Source: Psammoneis japonica (Eukaryota). Taken from it: a stretch of DNA of 57,774 bases. Positions within the stretch are counted from its first letter, which is position 1. Every line of letters begins with the position of its first letter. The notes below the pieces were generated by a model. That model saw only the letters and a list, made by a program, of their open reading frames with translations, was not told the DNA's origin and ran no database searches. The stretch spans positions 188,947 through 246,720 of the forward strand of contig QPGO01000113.1 of NCBI GenBank assembly GCA_008632985.1, read 5' to 3'. Both the position numbers and the translations under genes were made by a program. Shown here in pieces: positions 3,392 to 44,411 of the stretch.

Positions 3392-3726
3392 GTCGCCAAA
3401 TTCGAACTGCGAGGAGGCCTACTGTAAAGTTATTGAGAGGCAACTTGGTGCCGTTGTAGCAGGGTCGGAAGTCACTATCGCAACTATGAGAATAGATCAA
3501 ACGAGAAGACTTGATGGCAGTAGGAGCACAACAAACAAGCTGCCATACGAGGAAATTGACGCGGATGATTTGTCGTCTTGTCGACGACGACGACTCACTC
3601 GTGTCGTCATTCGCACTATTTGCAGTGAATGCGGCGCATGAGAGTTGCCGCCAACACGAGCCAGCCCGACTCAAAAATTCCAAAAAATCGCTTGTGGTAA
3701 CCCGGAAAAAGAGATCCAGAAGCACG

Positions 3727-4430
3727 NNNNNNNNNNNNNNNNNNNNNNNNNNNNNNNNNNNNNNNNNNNNNNNNNNNNNNNNNNNNNNNNNNNNNNNNNN
3801 NNNNNNNNNNNNNNNNNNNNNNNNNNNNNNNNNNNNNNNNNNNNNNNNNNNNNNNNNNNNNNNNNNNNNNNNNNNNNNNNNNNNNNNNNNNNNNNNNNNN
3901 NNNNNNNNNNNNNNNNNNNNNNNNNNNNNNNNNNNNNNNNNNNNNNNNNNNNNNNNNNNNNNNNNNNNNNNNNNNNNNNNNNNNNNNNNNNNNNNNNNNN
4001 NNNNNNNNNNNNNNNNNNNNNNNNNNNNNNNNNNNNNNNNNNNNNNNNNNNNNNNNNNNNNNNNNNNNNNNNNNNNNNNNNNNNNNNNNNNNNNNNNNNN
4101 NNNNNNNNNNNNNNNNNNNNNNNNNNNNNNNNNNNNNNNNNNNNNNNNNNNNNNNNNNNNNNNNNNNNNNNNNNNNNNNNNNNNNNNNNNNNNNNNNNNN
4201 NNNNNNNNNNNNNNNNNNNNNNNNNNNNNNNNNNNNNNNNNNNNNNNNNNNNNNNNNNNNNNNNNNNNNNNNNNNNNNNNNNNNNNNNNNNNNNNNNNNN
4301 NNNNNNNNNNNNNNNNNNNNNNNNNNNNNNNNNNNNNNNNNNNNNNNNNNNNNNNNNNNNNNNNNNNNNNNNNNNNNNNNNNNNNNNNNNNNNNNNNNNN
4401 NNNNNNNNNNNNNNNNNNNNNNNNNNNNNN
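3727..4430. other. Assembly gap (N run)
   Basis: Continuous run of n characters. Confidence 1.
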
Positions 4431-4486
4431 NAAAATGTGAGGTCAATCTATCCGATGTCCTATCGAGCGAAAGGTGAGAGTGATAA

Positions 4487-15877: not shown

Positions 15878-18800
15878 CTAAGGAAGATCCATCTGTGGTA
15901 CGTCGTTCATCAACCGAGAGAGCGTCGTATCGCCAATGTCAACGTCAATAACGGCCTCCCCGTGCAAAAGGGCTTCCAATCTGGAAGTAAAGTCCTTACT
16001 TTCTCGTTCAGTTTGAGAGAGCACACGCTCTCTCCCTCCCCTTGGTCTTTTGTTGCCATCCCCAAGCAATCTAGGACTTCCCAAAGCTGAATCCAATGAT
16101 CGCTTGTTTTTCCGCAAGAAGTCTCCAGAATTCAAGAACTCCGCATTCGACTGTCGAAGGGAGGTGTGAAGTGGTGAATGAAATGGAGATGCTTGCCCAT
16201 CAAAGTCCCCGACGCCTTCTTCAAACGGAACAATGTCACCTTCACGTGCGTGATAGTCGAGTTCCTCTTCATCTCTAGCTTCAGTAGTAGACTTGTCTTG
16301 TTCCAAACGCTGTAGAGCTGGAGTTTCCTTTACGAAATCTTCGTCACTCATTGTTGCAACCGACGAAAACAACGTTGGCGACTGCTTCATCGTAGCTCGA
16401 CCACTGCCTCCCATAGCAGGATAGTTCGAAAGCTGTAGGCTGTAGGATTGTCCATCGCCTTGCAAGCGCTTCGTTACAGCTTCTCGAATATTGTCCACCT
16501 CTCCTCGCGGAAGATAAATATATTCATCCTTTCGAATAAGATTCTCGGACATTGCATTCGACTCTTTCCACAAAAGTGCGCTTTCGAGACAACGTCGAAA
16601 CTGTTTCGTATCCAGCATGGCTTCACAGTCATTGCGAACATCGAGCGGTGCACGGCTAAGCATGTTCTCAATCACATAGCGAAATGATCCGTTGAGAGCT
16701 CCGTGCATCTGCGTCAATATCGGCTCGACAAACTCCGGGCGCAAAGTGTCTCTCCAGGAAAGGGGAAGGTGCTCGTAGCGATTGAAGTAGTCCTTCACCC
16801 ACGGATTCGGACACTCGGCGAATTCTCGCGGTGGCCACTTTGACAGAGAAGAGTCCTGTAGGTCTTGTGCCAACGAGACTATCTCGGCCGATAAGGATGT
16901 GATTGTGGATTTTGTTAGGCTCAGGATACGTTTGTCAGCTTGTGGACCCTGATTGTAGGCTGCGGTCCATACTGTATCACGGATGCAAAGCCGGACAAGA
17001 TATGGCAAAGCGACACGTTGCAAGGAAGGAACTTGTTCCGGATAGCCGTTGGCGTAAGCCTCAAGTAGCTTGAGACACGAAGTCTCCAGTGCCGTGTCTA
17101 ACCGGGTCTCTAGATCTCCTGATTCGTCAATAGACACAACTTCGGGCTTGTGACCAAACCCCGAGGCGCCACTCGACAAAGCACCAAGCATTGCGCCTGT
17201 ATACTCATGTTCAGAATCATCGCCAAGGTTCATGACAACGACAGGAATTTCGCTATTCATAGTTGCTTCGATGGTCGTCGTCCTCGGCTTTACCTTGGAT
17301 TTTGGACGAGGTGGAATAACCAACAAAGCAACATCGCATGGTTCATTCGTGACATCGGTGTTGCCATTTACAGCAACTGTCCGCAATTCTACGTCAGGGC
17401 CGTACCGACACGCTGAAACTTGACCATAACGAAGTTTTGTGTTCAACCATTCATGAATTAGCTCAGTGAAACTAACATCTTCGGCGACCGAGGCTTCCGG
17501 TAAAACGACCGCAATCTTGCAGAGGCATACAAAGTTGTCACTTTTGCATCCGTAATTGCTTGCGAAGGTCCCCTTTTTGGATGTCGTGAGTAGGCCGGCA
17601 AGATCTATCGGCTCTCCGTGTCCAAGTCTTTGTCTGCGGAAGAAGTCTTCTATTCCCAATTCCGAAGCGGCACCTGCATCTTCCTCCACGGATCGTCCAT
17701 AAGCATCTTGTGCGTCTATGAGCTGTCCTTCAGTGAGGATACGAGACGATAAGTAGGTTGGATCAATTTGCCTCAACGCTTCCTTGGACCGTTCCGCTTG
17801 TAGCCGACCTTCGACCTTCTGTCGCCATCGACGCCAGAACAACAATTTCCTTGCAGCGCAAACCTTTCTTTCCCATTCCAAGGCTGCTTTCCGTTCAATT
17901 TCGGCCTTGCGCTTTCTTTCGGCTTCCTCTCGTTGGCGCTGAAGTTCTAGAAGGCGAAGCCGCTTCTCTTCCTCTTCACGACGCTTCCTCGCCTCTTCTT
18001 CTTGTCGCAGCTTCAGCTTCCGTTCTTCTTCACGCTTCAGCTCAAGAGCCACCTGGCGCTGGCGCTCTTTTTCGGCTTCTTCGGCCTTTCTTCTTTCCTC
18101 TTCCAGCCTTTCTGCGATACGTCTCGCTTCCTCCTCCATTTGCTTGCGCCGACGTTCCTCAGCAGCAATTGCTTGGGCCTTTCTTGCCTCCTCAGCTTCG
18201 CGCTTCATCCTTTCCTTCTCCTCTGCTCGTTTCCTTTTCAGCTCCTCTTCGAGCTCTTTCTTTCTCTGAGCCTCTAGACGACGCTCTTCTTCAGCTCTTC
18301 TTTTCTCAAGCTCCTGCGCTGCTCGACGCGCTTCCGCTTCTTTGAGCTGCCGTTCTTTTTCCGCAAGAACTCGCGCTTCTTCTTGACGACGCTTTTCTTC
18401 TCGCTCTTTTTCTGCTTGTCGGGCGGCAGCAGCTTTTGCGGCTTCCTGCTCTTTCTTCAGCCTCTCAAGCACTGCGGGTTCCGCTGACCCTGCCGTGGAC
18501 GTGGCCGCCGGGGCGGGCAACGGGGCGTCCGACCCTACCAGGGATGCGCCCTCTCCGCTTACATCACCTCTGCACACTGCCAGTCTCGTAGCGCCCTTGA
18601 GCTTGGCTTCGATTGTTCTCATCATCTTGCGTGGTTGCAGGGGAACGACAATGTTCTTCTCTGGGTCTCTGCTTTCCTTGTAAGAGGTGAGTCGCCATCG
18701 AATCACGTGATCTTTTTTGCCCGATGCATCTACCTGCTTCTCCTTGACGGTAATATTGTAGTGCTTGCAAGCCGCCAATGCCTCACTTTCGTCCTCGAAA

Positions 18801-21459
18801 CAAAGCAACTTGATGAGGCGTTTCAGCGGGTATTCATCGTAGAAGGTCTCGCTCAAGTCCTTCTTCTTGGTCCCAAATGTTTTTGACATTATGCGAAAAG
18901 CAACCTTTCGCATCTGTTGCACATACTTGAACATGATGCAAGCAAAAAGATACGGAGTGGAAGGCGAACGTAAAATGGCAAAGAAGCGAGCATAGTTATA
19001 ATCTTTTTTTGCCTGTCACAATCACGAGTGGAGAAAAACGTGAGGAAGGAGTTGCTTCTCGTACGGCAACCGCGAATGGCGACAGTGACATACCTTGTAG
19101 ATGCGTAGCGCCAACTGCACAGGTTTAGAATTGTAAACCATAGGACGCTCCCGGAATAAACGCGCCGCGTAATTCAGTACTTCGGAGCCTCCATCGTTGT
19201 CCATTGTGAGAAGCATGTACAACCCCCTCATTTCTGGTTCCGCGGTTCCACGAGTCGTCGTCTTTGCGGCTTGTGATCCAATCAATCGGTTCGGAGACGC
19301 GGCCTGATTGTCTAGAGGCGATCCGTCAAAGTCACGAGGCCCGTTTCCCATGACGATAGGAGACTCGCATCCATGAATACCTCGTCCTTTCACTCCTTGC
19401 TCGTCAGCCACTTCTAGCGTGGATCTTCCAAGCGAATCATCATAGTACATGTTCAATGTCTTCATGGTTTGTCCAAGCTCCGTGATATTTTGCTGGCTCT
19501 GACTGTTTACGAAATCTGGAATATGGCTCAGCTGGTGCTCACACATTGCATGCCATCGTGCAATGCGCTCGTGACATCGAACCGCCCGCGCATCGCAGTT
19601 GCCGCCGGTTCCAACATAGTTTTGCAAGATGAAATCCTTCCGTACCATCCTTGTTCTGCAGGCCAGAACGAAAAGAGTGAGAGCGTGATACTATACAACA
19701 ATAAGAAGCCTAAGCATGTGCGAGTTGGTGACACACCTGTCCCAGATAAACTGTATGCAACCAAAAGAACCACACAGAAGCCAGGAAATATGAGTGGTTG
19801 GAGTAAAACCTAAAGAGTAAGAGTGGGGATAAAAACATGAACAATTCGTACCTGATAGACGTCTAGAGGCGGAGGACTTTGTACTTGCGTAAAGCGCGGG
19901 TCTGGGCCTTGTCGATCTCGTTCCATAACCCACTCCTCCAGATAGGCGCACACCGCTTCGAGAACACCAGGAGGTCGGACCCATTCCGGAACATTCAGTT
20001 TAAAGTCCGCGGCTGAACGGCGAAATCGCTTGACGGCGGTTTCTCGTAGAGTCCAACCATCAGGATGGATTGTGCCAGGCTGAGGGATTTCAAGTAGCTG
20101 GATATCATTTTCTTGCTCGCGTCTCTGCAGCTCATCATCCGGGCACATGGAAAGACATGTACCGACTAGCGATACTGCGGTTTCCAAGTCTTCTCTGTCA
20201 GTGCTGTCGATTTCTTGCTCGTCCTTGTCGTCCTCTTCTTTTTTCTGCCTCAGACCTTCTTGCAGTCTCGGCGTCTTGGGAGCAGCAAATCGGCGTTTGT
20301 TCTTCTCTGCCAATGACTCCACAGGAGTAAACGATGGCGCATTTGGATTCAAGGAACTGGATCCTCCGAGTGGTGGTGCATTTCGCAATCCTCCAGCGGA
20401 CGCTTGTGACGGAGGCGCACTGCCTGAGGCCGCAGCCGCAGCGGCCTCTTTCTGCCTCTTGCGCTCTAGCAGCTTTTTCTTCTTTTCTTCCAGCTTGGCT
20501 TTGAGTCTCGCCAGCTTCTCTTGTTCCGATTCTTTCCTCGTCGTTGTAGGTGGTTCTGGAACCGGCGGAGAAAAAGACCCCCTTGTAGGTGACATGGATG
20601 CATCTCGCGCCGACGATAGCTGAGTTGGAGGTGGACTTGTGCTACCGCCACCCCAAGCGCTTGCCCCAGACTGCTGCGGATTACCAAACGGAGATGGCTT
20701 ATTAAAGTCTGAATCGCCCATATCTTCATCGTCAGAAGCTGCGGCACCAAACGCCTCTGTGGTCGAAGAAGACGCTCCAAACGTCGTTGGGAATGTTGTG
20801 TTTGAAGAGCTAAACGTTGGTGCCGTGCTGCCGCCAAAGCCTGACGCACTGTTTTCTCCGGTAGGAACCACATTGGCTGATACACCAAAAGAAATTGTAG
20901 AAGAAGTCGTTGCTGCAGTTCCACCAAAGGGACTGGCAGCCGATGAAGTATTTACGGCCGGAGCAAACGCGTTTGTGGATCCAAATCCCGGCGGCTGAGA
21001 CGGTTGCTGTGCGTTGCTTCCAAATGGAGAAGACTGGGCAGTCGTTCCTCCAAAACCGTGTGGAGCGGAAGCTCCTCCACCAAATGTACCACCAAATTGT
21101 TGATTCTGTTGTTGTGCGGCAGGAAAAGGAGCTGGTTGATTTGTATTATTACCAAAGCCAGACGTGAATCCAGAAGTCTGTGTCCCAGCAAAGTTTGCCG
21201 GGGGCTGATTTGTAGAAGCCCCAAACGGCACCAGATTCGACGAGGTACCAAAGGTTGTAGCTGGTGAGCCTGCTGTCCCTCCAAATGGCGTAGATGAAAC
21301 CGTCGATCCAAAGCCTTGCTGAGGGGCAGCGGAAGTCGAGCCAAACGCAGAGGATCCAAAGCCTCCACCAAAATCCGGTTGAGACGACGATCGCTGTTGT
21401 GATCCAAACCCCGACGGTTGTTGCTGTGACGATCCAAAGCCTCCTCCAAATCCTGACAT
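15878..21459 (-). CDS. SAC3: SAC3/GANP mRNA export factor (TREX-2) with N-terminal FG repeats
   Basis: FG/GFG repeats; LVGTCLSMCP, AVKRFRRSAAD, VRPPGVL, FIWDRTRMVRKDF, HERIAR, NYARFF; long coiled-coil C-terminus. Introns 19851-19751, 19736-19656 and about 19093-19013. Confidence 0.9.
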
Positions 21460-21690
21460 GGTGATTGTGTTTCAGATGTTAGTGTGTTGTTTTGGAGAGC
21501 GGCGGCGTCAGAAGTCAGCGTGCCATTGTCAAAACTCAAAACTGAAAACACTTCCAAACTCCAAACTGTTTTGCTTGCACCGACGACTTCCAGACTGACT
21601 CTACAGCGCCGCTTGCGCGCGCGCGCGCGACAGACGTGATAACGAAGGAATGAAGCTAACAAATGCGTGCACCACACTGCTTTTTCCAAC

Positions 21691-22057
21691 TGCAGTATGC
21701 GACTGTTATATACATATTTATGATTATATATTATTTATATGTCAATCGTACCACAGTCGTGGATGCGTACAAAGGACAGAACGATCACACAGAGTTGATC
21801 GGATGTCGAGAATTGCAAATACGATCGATTGACGATGTTGACATCTTATGTGTCAATAGCAATCGTATCCGGACAATCTGTTGTCACGAATATATTCTCC
21901 GAAAGGCCTTTTGTCTGTAGAAGCAGTACAGAAGCTTTAGGCCATTGAGAACTCGTTCGGAGAAACCAAAAATCACAGAGCAAAATTTAATCTCATAATT
22001 TCCACTTTTCGTACACTATTCTACTTTCGTTTACACTCGTTCTTCGAGCATAGTGCA
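21691..22057 (+). repeat. 5' LTR
   Basis: Starts TGCAGTATGC, ends GCATAGTGCA (imperfect inverted termini); differs from 26052-26418 at 3 positions. Confidence 0.95.
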
Positions 22058-25000
22058 TTGTGTATACACACCACAGAAGGTAAAAAGCACGGAAAATGAA
22101 GATTTTAACTAATGTGCCTTTGTAAATTCTTCTATAAACAGGAACGAATCGCATCAGTTCTGCTGGAATCGATTTCCGAGCGGAAGAAGCTCAAGCCGAG
22201 CAGTGCCTCAAGATGGAACGCTGTTTTTCGTCTACCAGACAAGAGGATTCGCTCTAATACGGTCTATTCCAAGCACCCAAGGATCAAGGGCTCTCAAGTG
22301 CACCGCATTGTCAAAAAATCTACACCAAGTCATGGTTGCAGAGAATGCAAGTTCCGAGTCGATCAGGTCCGAGAAATGCGTCTGGCATGCAAGGAGAGAC
22401 CATTGGAGAGTTTTTGGAGACCGAATCAACGAGCCTCGAGTCCAAGAGCAAGATGGAACCGTTGGAAAGTGCCTCAAGAGTCTCGTGTCTCATGTCTTTC
22501 CAAGAATTGCACTTCAGAATCAGAGTTGTTATTTTCAAGACGACCTGAAGAAACCAGAGCTGCTTGACAGCAAGAAAGCCTCTGTTGGACCCAAGAGGTC
22601 AATGATGAGAGTCCATGCGACCCTCAGATGGATTCTAAGTCGAATCTAGCGGGAAACCGAGCGCTGATTTATCAGCCATCACTCGCACCGCAAGGATGGC
22701 AGCATCAGTCTACTGTCCAAAACAATCAACTGTTGCAACTCATCCTTGATGAGCTGATTAAGTTTTGAGTCATCCAAAGGTCGTTCATGACGTCCGTGAC
22801 GAAAAAACATATCAACTCAGGCTCTGACAGCGCAGTTGGTTCCAAAATAAAAAAGGTTCCAAATTTGGTTCCAAAAATGGTCTCCCACATGGTGCCAGAA
22901 CAATCCAAAGTGAATGCAAGGTCTTGTCTTTGAAAAAAGAACACCCACATCACGGATTGAAGCCATTCTAAAAATGAACTAGCAAAAGAGTGCAAGGGTG
23001 ACTCTGAAAGAGACCCAAAAATGCGCCGTTCAAATGGCAATCGCACGCGGTCGCGTCGCGATGACGAAAATGCCGCTCGCAAAAAAAGAGATGAACGTCA
23101 TGATTGATCAGGCGGTTCAAAAAACACTCAAAGCGAGTTCCTTGAACAAAGAAAAAGAGCACAAGGGCAAAGAATCAGATTCTGACACCCTCAGTGAAGA
23201 AAAATGCCAATTTGATCGGATGATCCAGACTGAATCCGAAGAATGGTTTTGGTCTGTTCACGAATTGCATGCTTTGCTGGACATTAGGAAGCCTAGAAAA
23301 AAGGCAGAAATAATTCACACCAGTCCAGGAGTCATCATTTATGTGAACACTTCCTTGGGAAAGGAGAGAAAAAAAAAAGCATCTGCGTGTTCCTGTCGAC
23401 AACGGAACATCGTCAACCACAATTTTGCGCAAATTCGTGCGAAAGTTGAGAACACAAGAATCCGCCACCAAAAACTTGGAAAACCAAGGGTGAGCTCTTT
23501 ACGACTGACAGCAAACACCGAATTCAGTTCTCACTGTGCGAAATTTAATGCGTGCTGACATGCAAACAGTGTGTGTTGAAAACACCAAATTTTTCTTCAG
23601 GTTCAAATGATGTGATCATGGGACGCGACTTAATGTCCAGTCCTGCAAGTCACACTGCACTGCGCAAATGAAGAAATCTAATGGGAAGAAGCAATCACCT
23701 TATGAAGAATGTTCACACACTCTTCGATGCCGATGTTTTCAAGCTGAAAACCGATCACATTGAAAAATGTGACGCCGTGAATGGAGTTGACAACGGAACC
23801 AATGGTCCTCGACTCACATTGTCACGCCATCGATCTTAATCAAGTGACAACTACGGCGATGCATCCAACCCAAATGAACACAACCAACTCAATCTTCTTC
23901 TTAAGAGGTTGAAATCGTTTTGAAAAGTTCCTCAGACGAATGCATGGGAAGCATCAGTGGATCTCATCGTGGAAAATCTGACGCGATTCCACGACGCGTG
24001 AGAACCTTCTCCTATCACAGTCTTTGGAGGCGTCCAATCAAAAGGAGTTTGACCCATTATGAAAGATTGAAGTCTCAAGAATGAAATTGCTCTGAACAAG
24101 TCGCTCTGAGACTCATTGTCCAAAGAAAACAGGTCAAGTTCGACCGCATCTGACACTCAGAAGCTCAGCACAAGGTTCACACAGGTGGTGCATCCTTTAC
24201 CCAATGTTCAGGAAATGCTGTTGAAGCAAGAACGTTTCATGTGTGTAATCTGTTTGATTCAAACATGGAATGCCACCATGTCAAATAAAAAAAGCACACG
24301 TCGTGCTCACACGAAAATCATGCCGTGGGGAGAAAATGAGCACTGTGGACTTCCAATGAGAATCTATAGAGCCCCAGATATTTTTATGCAACACTTGAGT
24401 GAACTCATAACAGGTTTGAAGTTGTCAGGACGACTGCATGTGATCGTTTGTGCCTGACAAAAGTAACTTCAAAATGTCACCTGCACAAGCAACAGCTTAA
24501 TGCGGCATTCAAACGACTAGAACAGTCGCTTAGAAGGTTAACAACAAAAGTCCTTCACTGTTTAACTTGAAATAAACTATCAAGACTTCCATGCGTGACG
24601 ATGTGCAATCGATTGCAAAGAAAATGGAGGCGATTCAAGCAATCGCAACACGAGAAAAACGTAAAGAACACTACGACATCTCGTTGTCATACGTCACTAT
24701 TATCGAGACATGTAGTCTCAACGATCTCCTGTACAATACTAGCCAAATTCACCTCAATAAAGGTCAAACGGCAAAAGTGCAAGTACAGAACGAAAAGTCT
24801 CCGAAAATGTGGAGCGCATCAAATCAAAAACTATATTGTTATCATACACGGATTTCAATATTATACGTTACAACGGAAAAAAGAACTTCTGTCCATAGTG
24901 AAAACACTTATAAAATTCCGAAATATACTGTTTGGCCAACAGATTTATACATATACGGATCATAAGACACAACGGACAAAGTCATACGTTGACAACTTCA

Positions 25001-26051
25001 GTCCCGAATTAGAATACAACGAGGGCAAGGCGAACATCGTCGCGATAGACGCGATCAGCCGACTTACTATAGAAAATTGAATCCTACGACAATGTCCTAC
25101 CGTTAAAACGGGATAAAGACATTCCCTCCAAATTGTCGGACGCGACATATCATACGAACACTTTTCGTGGAGGCGAGCGAGATCGAAAAATGCTCATGTC
25201 ACAAGGATAAAATCGCCTTTTTAAAGGACGATTTAGGAAAAAACAGTGACAGATTGGTACACATTATACGTATCCACTTCACACTGGCAAAAGACAATCT
25301 CACAACACCCGTACGGTTGTATTGTACAATGTACGAGGCAAGACATTAAAATATACATCATGTCGACACACGAGATGTGCCAAAGATCTAGAAAAAGAAA
25401 AGAAAAATGGACATTTATCCACTTAGTGCACGAAACCAGTGCCTTCGGAATGACAAAATAACACCGGTATGTCAGAAAGAAACGTCCAAATAACGATTAA
25501 AATCCAACTGATAGATGGTTGAAGTACAAAAAAAAAAATCCATAATGGAATTCATAACCATCACAGGATTGATTATCAAGACGAAATGGTCATAATATCT
25601 TTGACCATCGTTTATTATTACTTATGAAACGTGGTAGTGCAGCAGAGCAATATGGCATATAAAGTAAGCCCGCCAAACTACATGAAATCCACAAGTAAGT
25701 AAGTGAACGCCACAATTAAGAGCGTACATTAAGTACTGGGCACGATGCTATGTACAATCGATATCAGGAAAAACACTTACTCCAGGACAATTAGTCCTTG
25801 TGTTCATATCAACAAGAACGTCAATGAGAATACTCGACGTAATACTATATATATACATATTAAGTGAGAAACAAACAATGTCACTCTCAAAAGACATTCG
25901 GAAATTGGAACGGCCCTATATTGCCTATACAAAACAACAACAGTCATTGCTAATGGCACAATACAGTGAAAGTGGAGACATTATTGACACTGTCGATGTC
26001 CGTCGAATAATCCACTTACAAATGACTCTAATGTGCAATTAGGGAGGCGAA

Positions 26052-26418
26052 TGCAGTATGCGACTGTTATATACATATTTATGATTATATATTATTTATA
26101 TGTCAATCGTACCACAGTCGTGGATGCGTACAAAGGACAGAACGATCACACAGAGTTGATCGGATGTCGAGAATTGCAAATACGATCGATTGACGATGTT
26201 GACATCTTACGTGTCAATAGCAATCGTATCCGGACAATCTGTTGTCACGAATATATTCTCCGAAAGGCCTTTTGTCTGTAGAAGCAGTACAGAAGCTTTA
26301 GGCCATTGAGAACTCGTTCGGAGAAACCAAAAATCACAGAGCAAAATTTAATCTCATAATTTCCACTTTTCGCACACTGTTCTACTTTCGTTTACACTCG
26401 TTCTTCGAGCATAGTGCA
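26052..26418 (+). repeat. 3' LTR
   Basis: Direct copy of 21691-22057, preceded by the PPT and followed by the TSD CAAC. Confidence 0.95.
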
Positions 26419-26852
26419 CAACTTCGTATTTTGGGTCTGTTGTGTTGTTGCTTTTGGCAAGTCTAAAGCAGTCAAGCTAGAGTTCAGCAGTTACATGGAT
26501 GGATTTGAGATCTCACAAACTGTCGCTGCTGCTGCACCACACAAAAGCAACAACTCCTCACCAGGAGGCAGGGTCACACAACGGTGCAAGAACCAACTCA
26601 ATTTGGTCTTCTTCTCACAGACAAGAGAGAGCAGCTCTCACAGTTTTCTCCATGGAGCAAGACCATTGTTGCAGGAAAGATCTGCTGCTGATCACATGAT
26701 TGTGGGCTTGTCATCATTGATGTGGAGACTGTGGTGGTGTCGTGTGTCCTCACATTCACCACCTCAGTGTCGTGACAAGTCAAGCCAGCTCAAGGAACTT
26801 TCAGAGGTCTTTGCTTTGACTTGGCCCCTCTCCTTCAAAACAACACATCAAC

Positions 26853-27145
26853 TTTTGATGCCAGAGATTTGACAATTGCAGAGCAACTCATCAGTGGGAG
26901 TGTTCCAGCATCACCACATGCACGCAGCACTTTGTTTCTTTCCAGACACCATGGTGCGATCATTGATGGTTGCTGACTGTTGCATGGAGTCTGTTGCTGC
27001 CAAGATTCCAGGCTTCTTCTTCCCGCCACATTGCTTGCAAGAGACACAAAAGACATCCCATCAAGCACCCATTCTGCTTTCCAACAATGGCTGTCAATGT
27101 GCGGAAACTGTCGCTCTGTTTTGTGATCGCAAAAATGGAGGCGGC
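26853..27145. repeat. Diverged dispersed repeat, copy 1 (copy 2 at 36479-36850)
   Basis: Collinear shared blocks ttttg.tgccagagat, tttgtttctttccagaca, tgttgcatggagtc, ccaggcttcttctt, gacacaaa, ttgtgat.gc..aaaaatgga. Confidence 0.65.
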
Positions 27146-27271
27146 GATGACGCATGTTCTTCAAAACAAAAACGTTGACAACACCACACATGTGACTGTT
27201 GGAACACTGGGGACAGATGCAGTTTTCACAGGACAGACAGACAAAGTTGCAGTGTGGGATGCACTGATGAT

Positions 27272-28858
27272 TGTGGACAATGTGGCAAGTTTGCACTCAC
27301 AACTCGGGTTGAGTTGCGTGTCTTGTGCTCACTTTTTAGCTTCTGCACCCGGTTGACATGGCAATGACAACAAGCAGTGGTGTCAGTTGAGTGTTTGCAA
27401 GCCACATGGCAAGCTGGGAGATGGTGAGACTCAACACACACCAGCTCTTGGTGAGCCACAAAGCTCTGCTGAAGCTGAAAAGTTGCGGCACGACACTCAA
27501 AGGAGTGGTGTCTTTCGAGAGCTGGGAAGTTGATGGGAATCCACAGATGAGGACTGGGAAGTCAGCAGGAATCCAAAGGAAAGAGCCAGGATGTTGATGG
27601 GAATCCAAAGGTGTGCCTCATGTTGGTGGATTGCAGCAAACAAGCCAGCTGGATGAGGGTGAAGAAACAATCTCTGGAGGACCTCGCTGTTGGAGAAGCT
27701 GTCAAGGGTCTGCTGAAAGAGGGTGCAGTGATGTTGTGTCAGGGTCAGTGAGACAGAGTGTGCAATTGTTGACAAGCTGTGGAACTCCAACACAAAACAC
27801 AAGTCCCAGAAAATGTGGGCAAGGACACAGCTGAGTGCGACACATGGAAACCATGAGAAAGATTGGCGAGTGTGTTGGAAGAATGTTCAGGCTGGAGGTG
27901 CAGGCACTGATGTCCATGAGGCAGGAGAGCATGCCAGAAAAGCTGGATTGTCCATCAAGAGACACCATGACATTGGAGAAGGATGAGGAAAATCTGGGGC
28001 AAGAAATGAGGCCACCGTGTGAAACAGAGCACAATCTACAAGATGAAGAAGGCAAAGGTGTTCAATGTGATTGTGGGGCAATGCACAAAAGCCATTCATC
28101 ACAAGCTTGGAGGAGCAGCAGAGTTCATGAGAGTTGCAAAGGAGTGGGATGTGGTGGCACTGCTGAGCATTCTCAAGTCAATCTTGTTCCATGCAAATGA
28201 GAAGACAAACCCTCATGTCCAGGCAGTCAAAGCTTGGAAGCAGTTTGTGCTCATTTGTCAAGACAAAAGAAAGGTGCTTCAAGATCATCTCAGTTGGTTC
28301 ATGAGCCCAGCCAAGATGGTGGAAACTTCCTGTGGCAGGATCATCCAGGAAGAAATTGCCAAGAAGCAAAATGGGTTCAGCAAGGATGCTGATGACACTT
28401 GGAGCAAAGAAAGGAACAAGTTGTCAGTGGTGGTGTTGTGGAAGGCACCAAGGATTGTTGGCATGTCTTGAAAGACCTGCACCAGCAGTTCATGTTGGGT
28501 GTTCACATGTGCCCCAATTCAGCTGAAAAGGCATTGCAGGTGTTGGGCACCTGCGGCACCAAAAGAAACCTGAGGGTGCAAGTTTTGTGCAGAGCAAAAA
28601 GAAGAAGAAAATCACATGTTGGAAGTGCAACAAAGTCAGACATCTGAGAAGGGATCATCCTGACAATGATCATTCATCAGTGGAGTTGGATGCCGCAGAT
28701 CACGGGAATCAACAGAGTGGCGATTGTGGACAAAATGTGGCAAGTTTGCATTTGAAACTTGGGTTGAGTTGCAGGTCTTATGCTCGCTGTTTAGCTTCTT
28801 CACCTGGTTGACATGGCAATGACAACCAGCAATGTCAGTTGAGTGTTTGCAAGCCACA
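27272..28858 (+). mobile_element. Short LTR element carrying only a decayed copia-type gag
   Basis: About 135-bp direct repeats 27272-27406 and 28725-28858, each TGTGG...CCACA. Internal gag-like YKMKKAKVFNVIVGQCTKAIHHKL...DVVALLSILK and zinc-knuckle remnant ITCWKCNKVRHL; no pol. Confidence 0.7.
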
Positions 28859-30500
28859 TGGTGAGTCAGGAAAAAGCGAGACTGAACATGTGCCTGTCAG
28901 CAAGCCATGAAGCTCCAACAGTGACAAACGAGCTGGCATGCAAAGGAACAACAAAAAGAGGAGCTTGGCAAAATGGTGGCAGCAGCATGCTGTGTTGCAT
29001 CCAGTGCTGTGTTGTGCATTGCTGTGGTTGCTGGCTCTTGGGTGTAGAAGCCAGCATTGTTGCTTCTGCACATCATGAAAAATGCCCACAAACAACCTGA
29101 GACAGTTTTCTTGCAGTGACAGAATTGCGTTCATTGTGTGCAAATGCATGCGTGACAAGTGTGTTTTTGTCTGGTCATTTCAACAGTTGATGATTGCCGT
29201 GTGCTAAAAATTGTGAGCTCTGGCAGGTGATGACAAAATTGGCTCTGAGGTCTGTGCAGAAATCATGCTTGATTGACCTCATTTCACCTGGAGCTGGAAC
29301 TGGCACAGGTGCAATGCTCACATTGACAATGGCCATTGCACCCAAACCTTCACTCACAACATTCCTGCATGCTCACAAAACCATTCACTCTCATGCCATT
29401 GTGCATGAGACTTTTTTTCAGCATGATGCATGCAGTCTCACTTGATGCCAGCAGACAACTCACTTGCGCACACTTGACACCAGCACAGACAGCTTGATCT
29501 CTTTCACCCACAACTCAGACATCAACAACTGCCATCAATTTGATGCTTCACACTGACCCCACCAGGCCACAGATGGACTGCCTTTGCCAATGAAGAACAA
29601 CTTGCGCAGACCCTGACAAAGCCAGTGCCAGCAACTGTGCTGCAGTGCTGCAGCAAGACTGCATGCAATGCCACGGGGTGGGCAGGCAGTGACAGGGCAA
29701 CCTGTGACATGGATGACCATTGTCTGTGGATGTGGGGGGGCTTGTCACAGATTTCATGCATGGCATTGGATCTTTGCAAATGAGGGGTGATGCCCAAGCT
29801 GCCGTGCCACTTGGGGCCCCTGAAGTCACTCTGGTCATTGCCCCCTGACATGTGTTCTCCAGACAGATTGGGGCATCTTCTTGTGTGGTGGCTCTGGCTG
29901 AAAGTGTGACCCCTCTGAGCCAGAGCAGATGGTTGCTCAGTCAGATGGGGCACTGTGCTCCCACACCACCAGCAAGAAAGATCATGCTTTCACCCCATCA
30001 TGGTGCACCCTGGCACCAAGGAGCTGCCACACCATGGCAGCAGTGCCTCTTGCCTTCTGCGACCAGTGCTGCCAGAGCCTTGCCAAAAAATGCACTTTGT
30101 GTGCTGTGCACCAACTGCCATTGAACTCTGTGCACTTCTTTGCACAAGCAAAAGCAACCATTTGGGGGACTTTTTTTTTGTCCAAATGGCAGACAAAATT
30201 TCCTTGATGATCCTCACAGTGTGGCATTGCCCAAAACAACACATGTCTTTGGCTGTTCAACAGAGAGATTGATGCAACCAGAAAGTTTTTTCTTTCTCCA
30301 GCATGTGTGCAATGTGCCCCTTGCTCACACCAGAAAGGATGTGCCAAATCAATGCTCTGGCATGGAACAAATGTTGCCAAAAGCTTCTTTCTCAACAGCT
30401 GGCAAACCAAACTGCAACCATGGCTGGGTGACAACAGAGTGGACAACGACCATTCCTGCTTGGCCATTGGCCGCCACAGCACAGATGGACTTTCTTTGGT

Positions 30501-33400
30501 GTGTCATCCATGGAGAGTGATGAGTCTTTGGGTGGCAATGTGAAAGAACAAACAGACACATTGGTTGACTTTGCAGCAAACATTGAGAAGAGTCATCTGA
30601 TGAAGAACCTTCACAGCATTTTGCCAGTGGTGTTGCCAACACCAAAGAAAAGGCAAGACAGACATGCTCCAAAGCTCGTGAAGATTTTACAAATGGGCTC
30701 ATCATTTTTTTACATGGATCTGGAGCATGGGGGTGATGACTGTGGAGATGTTCAGCTGTTGACTCTTGCTTGTGATGCTGTGACAAAGTTGACACTGGGC
30801 AAGTTTGACAAGCATGTGTGCCCACCCTCACATGCTCATTGGACTGAAGCAACCATGTCCACACATGGCGTGCACCCAAACCAGGAGAGAGTGCAGCCTG
30901 TCTCTCCTTTTGAAGAAGTGTGGAAGCAGTTTGTGGATGTTGTTGAGAAACATCTTGACAATGGCAACAAGAAAGGCACCCTTGTCATGTGTGTGTGGGG
31001 CAGACAGGCACGTGATTGTGAGTCACTGTTTTGAGTCACAGAGGATGCCCATCATGGAAAACTGTTCATGCCAAGGTGGCACCCTTGTTTCATGGATCCA
31101 GAGAAAGTTGTTGCAGAGCACCTGGGGTGCAAATTGAGCAAAAAACACTCCAAGACAGCTGGGCGTGGATGCAAAGCAATGCACTGCCATGTGATGGGGC
31201 AAAAGCAAATTGAAAATCAAAAGGCATGCACTCTTCTTCCATTGTTGATGATGCTCATGAACAAACACTTTTGGACACACATGCTGACAAATCAAAGTCT
31301 GCCAGATGTGTGGGGCATGAAGAAGAGGAAAGCTCAAGATGCCAAGCTGAAACAAGCTGTGCTGAACAGCTGGTCTGAAGACAACAATGAAAGTTGGGAA
31401 ATTCTGTGTCAACACAGATGCACAGGTCCAGTGGGAGGGCCACACCATGGACCCACTCAAGAAGCCATGCTGTGCTCTGGCACATCACTGGCGTCACTCT
31501 TCTTGTTCTTTTTCCCAGTTACACTGCTTGAACCATTGCCACTGGGACAAACTGATGCAGCAATGAAGACTTTGTTTGTGAATGTGATGGAACATTAGAA
31601 GACTGTGGCAATGATGATGACAATGAGCCAGAAGAAAATTGTGCAGAGCCCAAGGGATGAGGATGAAGAGCCAGAAGAAAATGATGCAAAACCCAAGGGA
31701 GAGGATGAAGAAGAAAAGAAGCCTTGACTTGCCACACATGACAAATCACACCCTGGCGCTCAACATGGACACAAGGGAAAACCAACTCCTGCCATGGCTG
31801 GGCATGTTTGGGCCTTTTTTTGTTCCTTTCCTGGCCTGTTCAGCATCAGTGTGTTGGACTTGGTCCGCTCATTGTGGTCAAGGTTGTCTGTGCATCTGAA
31901 ATGCCATGACAGGAGCAAGCAATGTGTTTGACCAGCTTTGCACAAAAATGCATTTCATCAATGGCAACATGCTCCCATCTGACAAGAATGACCCACGACA
32001 GTGGTCCCCATTGCAAAAATTAATCCTGTTTTCATTGTCATCCAGTCCACTCTTGTTTCAGCATGGACACTTGGACAGAAATGTAGTGCAGACAAAATCA
32101 TGATAAAATGTGTGGGGGTTGAGCCATTGCGTGGACCCAACACATGTCTGCCAAGCCAGTCACACATGAGACAAAGGTTTGTGCTTTGTGCTGTGCATGC
32201 AAGGCTTTCTCTGCACCTTTGAGACACATGCTGGCAAGGAACACACCAAAGATGGTTCACCACCAAAAGCTGTTGTTGATTGACTGCTGCTCAGCACAGG
32301 CACTCAAGTCACTGTGCAAGGGGAGCTGGATGGATTTTGTGTGCAGACAACATTTCTGCACTTTGATGGAGGCGATGCTGCATCTGTCATTGTGCACAAG
32401 ATGTTGATGCCAGTGGGGGTGTGTTTGGGCTGAGCAAGAAAAAGTCCTGAGCTGCAGCTGACTGTGATGCCACAACAAGCTGTCTGGTCCAGCCCTCAAG
32501 AAAGCCAAGCATGGTTGGTTGTGAAAGGCAGTCAAGCAAGTGATGGGTGTGCAGGCAGGCAGCTCCTCATCTACAAAGTGCGGGCAACAGTGTGGAAAGA
32601 CAAGAAGGAGGTGGGATTCCTGCACAATCATGTGGTTGGCCCCACAGACCCCAGCCACACAGTTTTGCATCATTCAGGAGAAGCCAAGGTGAGGATCAAG
32701 ATTTCCAGTCAGGAGATCACCACCAAGCACACTGCCCACACATCTGGGATTGACCACAAAGACAGGGACACCACCAACTGCACCACATCCATTCACACAA
32801 AGCAATTGGCTGGCACTGTTTGTGAGTGTTTTTTTAGCTCAACAATGGTGCGCCACTTGCAATGTGTGCCATCGTGAAGTTTGTGGCTGCTGATCCAAGT
32901 CATCAGTGGCGCAAGTGCTTGCCAAAGAATGAAGGTTGGTGCAAGTTCCAAACAGACTTGGCAACAGAGATGATGAGCCATGGCATCCAAATGGATTGGA
33001 AGAAGGACACAGCAGATGAAAACTCAAAACCAGAAAAGATGAGACAACTTGGGTGCATCCCATGTGATTGCAAAGAATGTTTTTTCTGCAACAAGGGCAT
33101 TGTGCAAGTGGCACTGACCATTGGAGATGTTGCCCAACTCCTCACAATGCACGACACCTGTTCAGCATCAGCCAGACATCAGACCAGGCTCAAACAACTG
33201 AAAATCCTTGACTGTGGAGAGTGTGCTGCAGGAATGATCTCTTTGACATTTCTGATTGCAGCGTGACAATGGATGAGCTTAGAAGCTGCTGTGCGCAAAC
33301 TGGGGTTGGGTGCCAAACTTGTGGAGACCACAGAGTGACTGTTTGTGTGAAGGCTGCTGGCCAACCTGCAATCAAGACATTGACCAACAGCAAATGTGCA
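30501..33400 (+). pseudogene. Decayed piggyBac-like (DDE_Tnp_1_7) transposase with an N-terminal DEDDh exonuclease-like domain
   Basis: Exonuclease-like FFYMDLEHGG...QL...FDKHV.P...THG...VWKQF...D. Transposase fragments in order: LASLFLFFFP, FDQL..MHF, AWTLG..CSADKIMIK, KP..H..KV.ALCCA, ATVWKDKKEVGFLH, GIDHKDRD, KFQTDLA, MRQ...PCDC..CFFC..G, plus a Cys-rich tail; many stops and frameshifts. Confidence 0.8.
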
Positions 33401-34199
33401 CCAAAATGTTGACAAACTGAAATTCACACGTTGGCCAAAAGGAACCAAATTTTGCAAAGCCCCTCACATGATGCTGTGTGCAACAGCAGCACTCTGTTGA
33501 TGCACCCAGGCTGGGTTTTGAGAATTGACACAAACCTTCAAGCCACTTGAAAGCATCAAAACAATCATTTGGAGCCCCCTCTCAGCAGTGGTCATGCACA
33601 CCCCCTCATCCTGGGCGTGCATGCAACAAGGGAAAAAACATTGGAGAATTGATTCAAACACAGCTGTCTCAAGTTGGAAATTGAAAAAATGCCATGCTGA
33701 TGAACATTGAGTGTGACAAAATCACTTGAAAATTTTGGATTGACACTCCCATGCTGACAGGGGGATTCCAACACTGCAACGTGCCTCAGGTGCATGTGGA
33801 AGGCATGGGAGCAAATGATGCAAGAGCTGCAATGCAGTGAAGACTTGCAGTTGTGCTGAGTGCTGAAAGCTCATCACAGCTCCATGCATCATGATGATGG
33901 ATGTGGTGGTGTGTTGTGTGCAAAGAAAAGTGCACAGCCGCAGCACACTGTGCAGTCATTTGCAGTCACCCTGGAGGAACACACAGTTGGTTTTTCACTG
34001 ACTCCAACACCACCATTCAATGCATTGCAACACACAGCAGAGTTGCTGCAATGCAGCTGCAGCAGTGCAGCTCCCATTGCTGCAACAGCTGCAATGTGTT
34101 CCAACATTGCAGTTGCTCCACTGCTGCTTCTGCAACAAGAGCCTTGATCTCAGGCTCAGGAACAACTCTTGTGCTCTGGTGCTGGTTGTTGAAGAACTG

Positions 34200-35750
34200 T
34201 TTTGCTTGAGTTGCACCCCACCTGGTGGGCCCAGCACTGCTCTCATTGCTTCTGAGCCTGAATTGCAAGTTTGTGGCTCAGATCCTTCAAGGATCAAAGA
34301 AGGTGGGACAATGTCATGCATTGTTGGCTGGACTTGTGGCAGGTGGCAAAAAGGAGTGCCATGTGTCAAGCAACAGTGCTCTGGACCAACCAACATGACA
34401 GCAGCCACATGGGGACATTTGTTGCAGCACTTGGAACAGACACCAAACCATTGGATGAAGCAGGTCAAACACTTGACGTGGTCTTTTGGAGTCAAATGCT
34501 GCAAATCTTAGAATGTCCATTGAGTGAATGACAAACTTGCAACTTTGCAACATTCTTGAATTCATCAACTGATGTGAACATGCACAGTGTGTTCCAGGTG
34601 ACACTGCACGACCCCCACAACACAATTGCCAACACAGCTGCTGCTGCTGGTGGGTGCTGCTGCCTGCGCCATTTGTTGCTTGTCCCTTTACAAACAATGG
34701 CACCTCCTGAGATGCTGCAGCAAGATGGAATCAACCTGAAGACAGGCTTCTGTGTGTTGAGCTCAATGATGTGTTCATCAAAGCTGTCTTGAATGAAATG
34801 GGCGTGAAGCAACACATTGTCCTGTGGCATCATTTCCACAGCAATGGGCAAAACAAGTGTTCTGGAGTTGTTGTCACACTGGCTGGAACAAAACAATGAA
34901 AAAGTCTTTCATTGTTTCCCACCACTGAACATTGAAGAAATGCCAAAGAAATGCTGAGCATGTTTGAGTCATGGGGGGTCCCCACAGCAGACATGAAGGC
35001 TCTGCGCAAGCAGCACAAAGTTGAGCACACTTAGATTCTCATTGACGAGGCCCAGAGGGTTCATGAATTTGATGCCATGTGGGCTTGATTGTTGCCGCAA
35101 CTCAAGACTTCTTAACCCTCCTTGGGTCTCACACTTTCCACTCAACTCCTGCCCCATGTCTTTTTCAACTTCCTTGTCAGGGAGGTCAAGAACTTGACCA
35201 CAGTGATGTTTTGCGACCATTTTAGATTGGCACGAGTCAGGCCAACTGGGTCAACTGTTGGAACATGGTCATGGAAATGAGCATTGTTGACAGTGGCAAG
35301 GAGCAAGCAGAGTTTCACATCAGAGCATCTTGAGAGATGTGCACTTGACGTTGAGCAGGTTTGCAAAATTTCAAACTCCAACTCAAATGGGACAAAAGCC
35401 CAGCTCCAACTGCAAAGGCAGGCATTGGTCAAGGCTTTGATCACAGCTTTGTGATCACTGGATCCATGCTTTAAGATGAGTTGCTGAGAAAGGCTGTTTC
35501 ACATGTTTTGCTGGGTGTGCTCCACACAGATGCAGCAACTTTTTCACCTGACAACTTGTTGCCAATGGCAAGAGCCAGAGTCTTTGTGCTGCAGGGCAGC
35601 CTTGCTTGTCAGGCTGCACAGTGGTTCTGCAGCAATGGCATGCACAACCCCAATTGGGGGCATGGAGCCTCCCAAACAATGGCACCAAGGAGTTGGCAGA
35701 GAGGGCAGCTCTGTTGCTTTCAACCTCTCAGCTCAAAGCATGCAAAAACC
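34200..35750 (-). pseudogene. Probable decayed MULE/Mutator-type transposase
   Basis: Minus-strand fragments in the expected order: PLF...H...WG, SSDHKAVIKAL (cf. ISDRHKGL..A), SNMLS (cf. TSN.AES), and a SWIM-like C..C...CPHVAAV. Heavily mutated. Confidence 0.42.
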
Positions 35751-36478
35751 GGGCAGTCTTTTCTCTTGGAGACCAGCTCTGACATTCACTTGATTGCTTC
35801 CTGTTGTCATGTCATTCAAGCCTGAGTGCAAAACAAAAGCGCCAGGCTTTCTGGGCAAGAGGGGAGATGTGGGTTGAAGCGGCATGTTTGGCGAACAAGC
35901 GCCACTCAAAATCCTTTTTCTGGGTGCCCCTCTGGGAGGGGTGCTGCCTCTGCAGCCTTTCACCCCCCTTTGGTGGGGTCAGGTTGAGACAATGTGAGCG
36001 CAAATCATGGTGACCCCAAAGCTGCAGCAGCGGCAAGAGGGAAAGTTGCGACCTTGTGCACATGGCTTCTGAGCTGACACAATGGGCAGACATCACGGAA
36101 AAGCAAGAGACAACACTCTGCTTCACCAAATTCTTGTTTTTGGTTTGTTTGTTGTTGCTTTTGGCAAATCCCCACCAAGCAGTTGTGTTTAGAGCACAGC
36201 ACTTGTGGACAGATGTGAAATCTCATGGACTCCTGCTGATGCTGTGCCCAGCTCAGGCAGCAGGTTGAGTTGGCACACAACTCAGCTGGCGTCTTTTCAC
36301 AGACAAGAGCACACCTCTTTTTTGCCATGGAAAGAGGCCATTTTGTTCTCATGAAGCTGAACCCTGAACTTCACAGTTGTTGATGTGGGGCTGCGTTCTT
36401 GCACTCACCTTCAGTGGCTTGAAATTTGAGCCAGCTCAAGAGACAGCAGGAGGCCGCCGTTGCTTCTCTTTCCATCGA

Positions 36479-36850
36479 TTTTGCTGCCAGAGATGCAACG
36501 ATCACAGAGTGACTCATTCACCAGAGAGTTCCAACACCACCACCTGCACTCATTTCTTTGTTTCTTTCCAGACATGGCATCATGTTGAATCAGCTTGCTC
36601 TGCCCACGAGGCATGTTCAGAGTGCACAGCCCGCATGCGCAGCACTCCCATTGGCCGATCATGGTTTTGCTGATTGTTGCATGGAGTCCACTGTCACCGA
36701 CACTCCAGGCTTCTTCTTGCCACCGCGCCATTTGCAAAAAGACACAAAATAAAAAGAGATTACCATGTAGTTGAGCATTCATTCGTTGAAAAGAAAACGC
36801 AGGAACAGTCGCGTTTCTTTCCGCATCATTGTGATTGCGAAAAATGGAAG
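36479..36850. repeat. Diverged dispersed repeat, copy 2 (copy 1 at 26853-27145)
   Basis: Same collinear blocks as copy 1, with an extra segment of about 70 bp. Confidence 0.65.
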
Positions 36851-44045: not shown

Positions 44046-44411
44046 CAGGCCATATTTGACATCAAAGCACATTGCAAACATGATGGGCGGGGTGGATATT
44101 AATATCAACAACAGATGTGGATTCAAAACATCGATGAAGGACTCACGAAGTGCGGTGAGCGATGAGTTCGAATCATCTCATCAAGTGCGAGTGTGCGATC
44201 GATTCGATTGATTCATTCGTCGTCCGTCCGTCGCTCGTCGTCGTTTCGCGCGCATTTTGGATTTGTGATTTTGTTTGATTTTTGATCATTTTTTGGAGCC
44301 GCGATGCATGCGGCTGACTCATCTTTCCCATTTCCCATCCCAATCATTCCAGACAACGAAGTGTTCCCTGTCAAGGAACAATTGTCCCTTACTCTCCCGG
44401 TGTGAAGCATC

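Follow-up and report, generated by a model that had tools for sequence, protein, structure and literature searches.

The window analyzed here, a 57,774-nucleotide stretch of Psammoneis japonica DNA, carries at 21691-26418 a broken LTR element with 367-bp LTRs of the TG...CA type, a CAAC target-site duplication, and a polypurine tract (Table 1). The interior is a broken gag-pol with the domain order RT, RNase H, integrase. By tblastn it shared ∼68% identity with a Gypsy family found in this genome, and it gave an RT_RNaseH profile match with an E-value of 5.7e-5, just under the curated cut-off. As judged by these features the element is a broken, non-autonomous Ty3/Gypsy LTR retrotransposon, and the gag-RT and RNase H-integrase labels of the initial annotation were roughly right by tblastn against the related Gypsy family. 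The window also encodes an EPSP synthase with 84–92% identity to the homologues listed (at least 120), of which those bearing a species name are from diatoms.

Table 1. Features of the Gypsy element and its immediate surroundings, in window coordinates
Feature	Position	Strand	Remark
Left target-site duplication CAAC, 4 bp	21687..21690	+	
5' LTR, 367 bp, TG...CA, TA intact (30 TA)	21691..22057	+	
Spared leader; tract begins sharply at ~22280 (5' border)	22058..22291	+	Sister-copy comparison
Dense TpA>TpG/CpA tract over broken gag-protease-RT; CG kept, TG ~ CA	22292..24241	.	
Graded 3' shoulder of the tract; 20/47 sites changed vs 36 expected	24242..24841	.	
Spared RNase H-integrase remnant and polypurine tract	24842..26051	+	2/118 sites changed in 24842-26341
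3' LTR; 3 differences from 5' LTR (TA/TG, TA/CA, one CG-type)	26052..26418	+	
Right target-site duplication CAAC	26419..26422	+	
Adjacent old block, context only, outside the element	26500..36500	.	TA o/e 0.03, CG o/e 0.15, CA/TG o/e 1.9

A first search for the family returned at least 20 full-length copies with 93–96% identity, and a second returned at least 11 further near-full copies. Only some of the candidates were scored in either search, and so the family is larger than 31 copies. Seven of the 18 later-retrieved stretches were partial and were excluded from the 31-copy alignment, and L020, which contains a recombinant segment, was excluded from the leakage, mosaic, and tract statistics. 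At sites that are neither TA nor CG the copies differ at 10–92 of 3713 columns (L020 apart). Target-site duplications matched by script in 19 of 20 copies and, on reading its ends, in the 20th as well. On its sequences the family is best described as a recent, non-autonomous burst.

The initial annotation had counted about 27 TA dinucleotides by eye in 22330-24350, and the exact count is 27 (observed/expected (o/e) 0.18). CG remains abundant there, as it had also stated (84 CG, o/e 0.84; the CG-rich word that it gave was located at ∼23041), and TA is indeed plentiful in 24560-26050 (116 TA, o/e 0.87, with 73 CG, o/e 1.34) and in the LTRs (30 and 28 TA, o/e 0.85 and 0.83). The two segments differ in TA (Fisher, p = 8e-22) but not significantly in CG (p = 0.32). 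The best single TA change-point falls at 24364 (support 24331–24689), with a likelihood ratio of 81, where the highest of 500 permutations reached 21. Windowed counting, proposed as a check on the step, thus gave a TA step beyond all 500 permutations and no significant CG step. The further claim that TA loss stops abruptly holds at the 5' border, where the fraction of variable TA sites that are changed rises from 2 of 44 in 21692-22291 to 74 of 99 in 22292-24241. It does not hold at the 3' border, which tapers over ∼600 bp (20 of 47 changed in 24242-24841, where a full tract would give 36, then 2 of 118 in 24842-26341).

Part of the TA step is, on sequence comparison, intrinsic to the family. 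In the two least-changed copies the TA o/e is 0.58–0.61 in the first segment and 0.92–0.95 in the second, the pattern expected of a parent that was already somewhat TA-poorer in gag-RT (o/e ∼0.6 versus 0.93). That intact relatives might be equally TA-poor in gag-RT had been raised as an objection to the step. They are somewhat poorer there, yet they hold 96–105 TA in the first segment as against 27 in this copy, and ∼70 of roughly 100 gag-RT TA were lost in this copy itself. Two other copies, L017 and L151, have the opposite layout, with the 5' part spared and the 3' part stripped, showing that the TA step is not a property of the coding domains.

The underlying change is restricted to TpA, which becomes TpG or CpA on both strands, with a preference for TAY. 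The two least-changed copies, which are natural sequences, served as the reference for the spectrum, and 18 copies were scored against them. A>G or T>C transitions accounted for 2697 of the 3090 differences, and 2461 were TA-type (TA>TG 1302, TA>CA 1159); changes in the opposite direction, CA>TA plus TG>TA, numbered 41. Change frequencies were 14–34% in TAN and 0.2–2.4% in other contexts (0.3–1.3% in AAN), a requirement for TA of at least 6-fold over any other context. Per strand, A>G frequencies were 0.45–0.49 with a 3' pyrimidine and 0.21–0.24 with a 3' purine. Leakage to non-TA adenines was likewise specific for a 3' pyrimidine: in 12 mosaic copies it affected 54 of 6571 sites inside tracts and 1 of 4053 outside, and in 30 copies 0.76% inside versus 0.32% outside. 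The end products within tracts were 2385 TG, 2086 CA, and 42 CG; 863 CG would be expected if both letters changed independently, showing that intact TpA is the substrate. TG and CA were near equal in nearly every copy. Neighboring changes were of like kind (TG/TG or CA/CA) at a frequency of 0.510 versus 0.495 by permutation, placing any strand coordination of adjacent changes at no more than 1.5 points over chance. The four-base context accounted for 40% of the site-to-site variance. The process removes TAA and TAG stops, raises GC content, and converts Tyr to Cys or His. It is not confined to this family: in nine Gypsy/Copia clusters drawn from 60 other loci, TA-type was the largest difference class in all nine (42–78%). 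An apparent sparing of RT in other Gypsy loci was an ascertainment effect of the HMM score and was not used.

Changed sites are gathered into tracts. Among 30 copies, 22 are mosaics, 6 are changed throughout, and 2 are spared; tracts are mostly 0.9–3 kb long and differ from copy to copy, sometimes in a complementary fashion. Inside tracts 4536 of 6020 site-copies are changed and outside 316 of 3698, and the level of change within the tract lies between 0.67 and 0.86 in all 29 tract-bearing copies. Ten of 42 sister-copy tract borders fall within 160 bp at 25246-25402 (clustering p = 0.0016), a cluster found post hoc and lying among several resistant sites that blur border placement. Eight copies have a 3' tract starting at ∼25250–25420, and their agreement in the choice between TG and CA is 938 of 1634, as against 938.7 expected. 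The border therefore recurs without common descent, so that something in the element favors it. No nucleosome periodicity of the resistant sites was detected (best period 180 bp, p = 0.57), and local CG density did not predict tract share (rho −0.35, p = 0.18). Local TA density correlated with tract share at rho −0.51 (p = 0.046), a value from 16 autocorrelated bins that was not relied on. The lack of strand coordination between adjacent changes argues for many small episodes or for site-by-site fixation.

The two LTRs of an LTR element are identical at insertion. In 20 copies, however, 323 of the 364 columns at which the paired LTRs differ are TA-type, and several copies combine a stripped LTR with an intact one (10 versus 29 TA in L002, 30 versus 10 in L017). 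When this copy was compared with 27 others, TG/CA states agreed at 949 of 1648 positions (0.576; chance 0.57–0.59). The best sister match to its tract was 96% (42 matches), and none of the sisters shares the tract. Because LTR pairs differ by TA-type changes and the TG/CA choice is at chance level, the changes arose after insertion and independently in each copy. Sister-copy alignment, suggested at the outset as the deciding comparison, therefore identifies the TA losses of this tract as private and in situ, and the proposal that the tract came from a partly mutated parent fails for the bulk of the loss. A small inherited baseline of TA loss is apparent from the alignment: L003 and L012 have 9 of 9 TG/CA states in common in spared regions, and even spared copies have few TA in gag (o/e 0.41–0.49). 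TG/CA states that have passed through transposition are heritable DNA letters.

TA removal and CG decay are separate in chemistry and in speed. Inside tracts 74.5% of TA and 4.5% of CG were changed, a rate ratio of ∼29, which bears out the claim that TA removal is a distinct, tract-like, and faster process and not a by-product of CpG decay. The by-product explanation was also rejected on the counts: CG is constant across copies (203–226 in total among 20 sister copies, in which TA totals 67–325), and the 18 scored copies have 126 CG-type (decay) differences against 2461 TA-type. The stronger statement that TA loss is uncoupled from CG loss survives in part. TA loss is distinct and faster, but the uncoupling is not complete, as CG decay is itself 2.6-fold higher inside tracts (182 of 4009 versus 40 of 2303 outside; site-stratified z = 5.9). 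Private CG decay correlated with tract share across copies (rho 0.57, p = 0.001), and other private changes showed no such correlation (rho 0.17, p = 0.38). For CH changes, VAR changes, and transversions the “off” values were higher because shared sub-family variants were counted more than once, and these values were not used as a clock. The enrichment of CG decay inside tracts suggests that both processes probably share one methylated, silenced domain.

Foreign or silent DNA was hit and host genes were spared, with one gene fragment in a flank affected. Host stretches have TA o/e values of 0.55 and 0.59, compared with 0.18 in the tract and 0.03 in the old block; the neighboring 10-kb block, with a CG o/e of 0.15, fits an end stage of the process. 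This copy's 3' half is spared although it lies beside that TA-free, CG-poor block, and among the ends compared such a neighbor showed no association with whether the end beside it was changed (11 ends) or spared (11 ends). Flanks beside changed ends were TA-poorer over the first few hundred base pairs (11 versus 10 ends, p = 0.043), in a marginal test made without empty-site alleles. One flank has no second match, in a search that gives a lower bound only, and has Cys at three repeat positions at which 136 of 138 homologous motifs have Tyr or Phe; the Tyr>Cys changes of this gene fragment lie close to the junction, and Tyr is retained 831 bp away. In L013 the flank and its paralogue are both changed. 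The LTR TA count was not significantly correlated with flank TA (rho 0.28, p = 0.08). These observations are suggestive only of tracts that cross the element edge into the flanks.

Signs of the process elsewhere were sought in proteins and metagenome loci. The Tyr>Cys/His signature was strong in 1 and partial in 2 of the 120 Gypsy proteins listed. One metagenome Gypsy protein, in which Cys or His replaces 8 of 12 conserved Tyr, has no more than 58% identity to any sequence scored from this genome. The signature was found in 0 of 99 Copia homologues of other organisms with at least six covered Tyr columns, including a Fragilaria crotonensis protein, and none of 80 metagenome Gypsy loci had an overall TA o/e below 0.5, in a retrieval that favored unchanged copies. 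With one metagenome protein positive against these two null results, the range is patchy or under-sampled. In the literature searched, outside which most subscription journals lie, we found no report of TpA hypermutation in diatoms.

In the descriptive conclusions as a whole we have high confidence. As to mechanism, we consider it on balance likely that a silenced domain licenses A:T>G:C change at TpA in part of each inserted copy. After insertion, a domain of ∼1–3 kb, sometimes the whole copy, would form at a position that differs from copy to copy. Within it a host activity would act almost exclusively on TpA, with 5'-TAY-3' as the best context, converting A:T to G:C on either strand, one site at a time, until the permissive sites are nearly saturated. 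A change of the A on one strand would abolish the TpA site, and a TA would therefore end as TG or CA and rarely as CG. Ordinary methyl-CpG decay would proceed in the same domain ∼30 times more slowly, leaving young tracts TA-free and CG-rich and old blocks without both. Of the two origins offered initially, a local chromatin domain is favored over inheritance, and we judge it likely, with a little more assurance than the scheme as a whole, that the tract corresponds to a methylated or heterochromatic domain.

For the chemistry, adenine deamination by an ADAT2/TadA-type enzyme has a nearly even chance of being correct. Candidate ADAT2-like and TadA-like genes are present in the genome by sequence, as are two A_deamin loci and 27 C5-methyltransferase matches. 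To our knowledge ADAT2 is universal in eukaryotes, and so the presence of an ADAT2-like gene does not discriminate. Had deamination occurred in one episode and replication followed, TG and CA would each be expected in runs, and none were seen; many episodes or repair-mediated fixation are therefore assumed. The favored context of engineered TadA editors has a 5' T and a 3' C (10.1101/2021.09.16.460622), and CG methylation of diatom transposons by DNMT5 is established (PMC9998398), according to the parts of these sources that were consulted. The process may serve as a defence. We advance only tentatively the wider proposal of a dedicated, chromatin-guided DNA adenine-editing defence in this diatom lineage, in which a natural base editor would act on double-stranded silenced DNA with a TAY motif, in kilobase domains on transposons that spread a few hundred bases into neighboring genes, and would be related by common descent to that of Rhizaria.

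Tracts could also be made in situ by another chemistry, such as a modified thymine (T>C in RTA, for example by oxidation) or an error-prone polymerase or repair pathway. A>G in TAY and T>C in RTA on the other strand have the same sequence outcome, making both readings of the TpA change identical in sequence, and the absence of strand runs would fit a symmetric mark on palindromic TA. We nevertheless regard this as unlikely. Processes of the polymerase-eta (WA) type target AA as well as TA, and this signature was rejected since AA is scarcely changed (0.3–1.3% in AAN versus 14–34% in TAN). A Tet_JBP search gave no match here and none in a control genome either, making it uninformative as to presence, and a literature search for thymine modification with TpA and transposons found nothing relevant. 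That tracts are set by recognition of repeat homology, through RIP-like pairing, or by small RNAs and not by a self-spreading chromatin domain would accord with repeats as targets, with the kilobase size of the tracts, and with the recurrence of borders at one place in the element. However, homology is full-length in all copies, and yet 22 of 30 are mosaics with different and sometimes complementary tracts. Change also appears to extend into the flank without a second match. RIP leaks into flanks too, so this spread is not decisive. The main target in Bigelowiella natans, as described in the consulted part of the preprint on that alga, is single-copy (10.64898/2026.01.13.699255). Together these points make homology recognition distinctly improbable.

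Inheritance would require that a mutated parent was copied, or that template switching by reverse transcriptase made the sharp borders. The family does recombine, with blocks of shared non-TA variants in subsets of copies; the inherited TG/CA states of L003 and L012 and the TA-poor gag of spared copies point the same way; and neither LTR of this copy is much changed, while a parent may have been lost or be missing from the assembly. On the other side, no pair of copies shares a tract, the longest identical TG/CA run of any pair is 16 (permutation range 13–23), mean agreement over 384 pairs is 0.567, and even the close sisters L014 and L017 agree at only 56 of 85 sites. With LTR pairs placing the change after insertion, inherited tracts are contradicted at the family level, and very improbable for this copy. 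An artefact, arising either where the sequencing instrument or the polymerase used for the library misread a modified TpA base or where polishing blended repeat copies, is marginally less probable still. Sites reading TG or CA, rarely CG, in random order could be a consensus of strand-specific miscalls, and contigs of run X1 contain 0.58 of the tract's words, though 0.76 of the tract's 31-mers can be found in other copies. At single-copy depth, however, fixed variants are seen in the X1 contigs; of 148 variable places 135 are transitions, and TA, TG, and CA alleles are all represented, many of them where the copies here vary, although X1 may be the source sample itself and is no proof of this copy's own letters. 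The passage of TG/CA states through transposition, the metagenome protein with its substituted Tyr residues, and the Sanger confirmation of changes reported in the consulted part of the B. natans preprint (10.64898/2026.01.13.699255) also argue against an artefact. That an ADAR-like activity edited the RNA intermediate and reverse transcription then fixed the result is scarcely credible. The genome has its two A_deamin loci, and ADAR favors a 5' U, as stated in the same part of the preprint (10.64898/2026.01.13.699255), but such editing predicts like LTRs and a one-strand bias. RNA-stage editing by ADAR or APOBEC was rejected because LTR pairs are unlike (10 versus 29 TA in L002) and TG and CA are near equal.

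In this family a single 4.7-kb sequence is replicated naturally 31 times, with a particular set of changed and spared segments in each copy. Such an internal control makes it possible to map borders, motif, strand behavior, and the connection with CG methylation to the single base. Since 323 of 364 LTR-LTR differences come from this process, LTR ages and repeat GC content are distorted in such genomes. The findings would indicate that DNA adenine editing occurs naturally in a group amenable to gene knockouts.

A mutator that is directed at repeats and changes A:T to G:C mirrors fungal RIP. In ascomycetes RIP changes C>T at CpA/TpG and so makes TpA, in strand-coordinated runs; it is premeiotic and homology-dependent and needs RID/DNMT4. 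The process described here resembles RIP in its dense, dinucleotide-specific transitions in repeats after insertion, which are like a mutational defence. It differs in that the direction is reversed, with TpA destroyed (2461 versus 41 TA-making changes) and TA lost from LTR pairs. GC rises, TAA and TAG stops are removed and not created, Tyr becomes Cys or His, and strand runs are absent (0.510 versus 0.495). Methyl-CpG decay, with diatom transposons DNMT5-methylated according to the consulted part of the source (PMC9998398), accounts for the slow CG>TG/CA component and for the excess of that component inside tracts; it cannot yield TA>TG/CA, which is ∼29 times faster here. Engineered TadA editors share the A>G change and the 5' T and 3' C preference, but the TA requirement is far stricter here (at least 6-fold) than the 25–52% given for those editors in the consulted part of the report (10.1101/2021.09.16.460622).

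The signature matches, at the level of sequence, the TpA hypermutation of integrated viral DNA in B. natans (Mettrop et al., bioRxiv 10.64898/2026.01.13.699255), the one unrelated alga in which, in the literature searched, a targeted mutator far faster than CG decay has been reported before. The preprint (10.64898/2026.01.13.699255), in the part consulted, gives a ∼1000-fold raised rate per generation in some lines only and proposes a putative ADAT2-type deaminase. From that rate we estimate roughly that saturation would take ∼10^5 generations, short enough that it may account for the all-or-none look of the tracts. Both systems have TpA>TpG/CpA transitions, confined to foreign or silent DNA and patchily on or off, and the copy-to-copy mosaicism here is an analogy only to the line-specific activity there. 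The host here is a diatom and not a chlorarachniophyte, and the words diatom, LTR, and CpG are absent from the consulted text of the preprint (10.64898/2026.01.13.699255). Multi-copy Gypsy/Copia targets are demonstrated here directly by copy alignment and LTR pairs, where the consulted text gives compositional hints for transposons. The TAY preference, the absence of strand runs, and the coupling to CG decay were measured beyond that account. The scale also differs, with 1–3-kb tracts within an element here and regions of 25–186 kb in B. natans, and what is new is the anatomy of tracts within an element, obtained by comparison of sister copies.

The 5′ LTR of the Gypsy element keeps its TA and lies close to a SAC3/GANP gene; an active promoter might have shielded this LTR from TA loss. 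The positions of this gene and of other features of the window are collected in the table.

Positions of genes, the assembly gap and compositionally unusual stretches in the window
Feature	Position	Strand	Remark
SAC3/GANP gene	15878-21471	-	Frame start ~220 bp from the 5′ LTR of the Gypsy element
Frame matching Zeta_toxin/AAA_33 P-loop families	1182-1931	-	
Assembly gap	about 3700-4450		~700 N
First stripped block	26500-36750		10 kb
Second stripped block	52500-54100		CG o/e 0.20, TA o/e 0.07
Short stretch between two genes	44001-44500		CG-rich, TA-poor (32 CG, 7 TA)

The first stripped block has lost both TA and CG. Repeats of 75-76% identity are found near both of its ends (pairs 26853/36479 and 26970/36667), so that the block may be an ancient LTR element. 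None of the frames tried matched a Pfam family at E < 0.01. The short intergenic stretch may be a young tract, that is, a patch in which TA has become TG or CA while CG is kept, or may have arisen by chance.

Among the sister copies of the Gypsy element, L006 alone has TA at 13 sites where TG or CA is common to at least 17 copies, and it carries 15 other private changes. Candidate readings of this pattern are that L006 is an early-branching copy or that reverse changes have occurred. Subsets of the sister copies share blocks of non-TA variants at the equivalent of window 22195-22863, and copy L020 contains a divergent segment; both features suggest that templates were switched between this family and its relatives.

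The genome contains 27 matches to C5 DNA-methyltransferase (loci L157-L166), near full length in five cases. TadA-like, ADAT2-like and two A_deamin loci are also present (L123, L126, L130-L133) and are regarded as enzyme candidates only.

Tyrosine-to-cysteine or -histidine substitution, the protein-level mark of TA>TG/CA change, was observed outside the family. The beta-propeller repeat gene fragment that adjoins sister copy L010 (L256:1502-2440) has cysteine for tyrosine in three repeats near the insertion and retains tyrosine 831 bp away. In a Gypsy RT-RNase H protein of another organism (P0187, from an ENA metagenome), cysteine or histidine occupies 8 of the 12 conserved tyrosine positions, with the glycine, phenylalanine and tryptophan columns intact.
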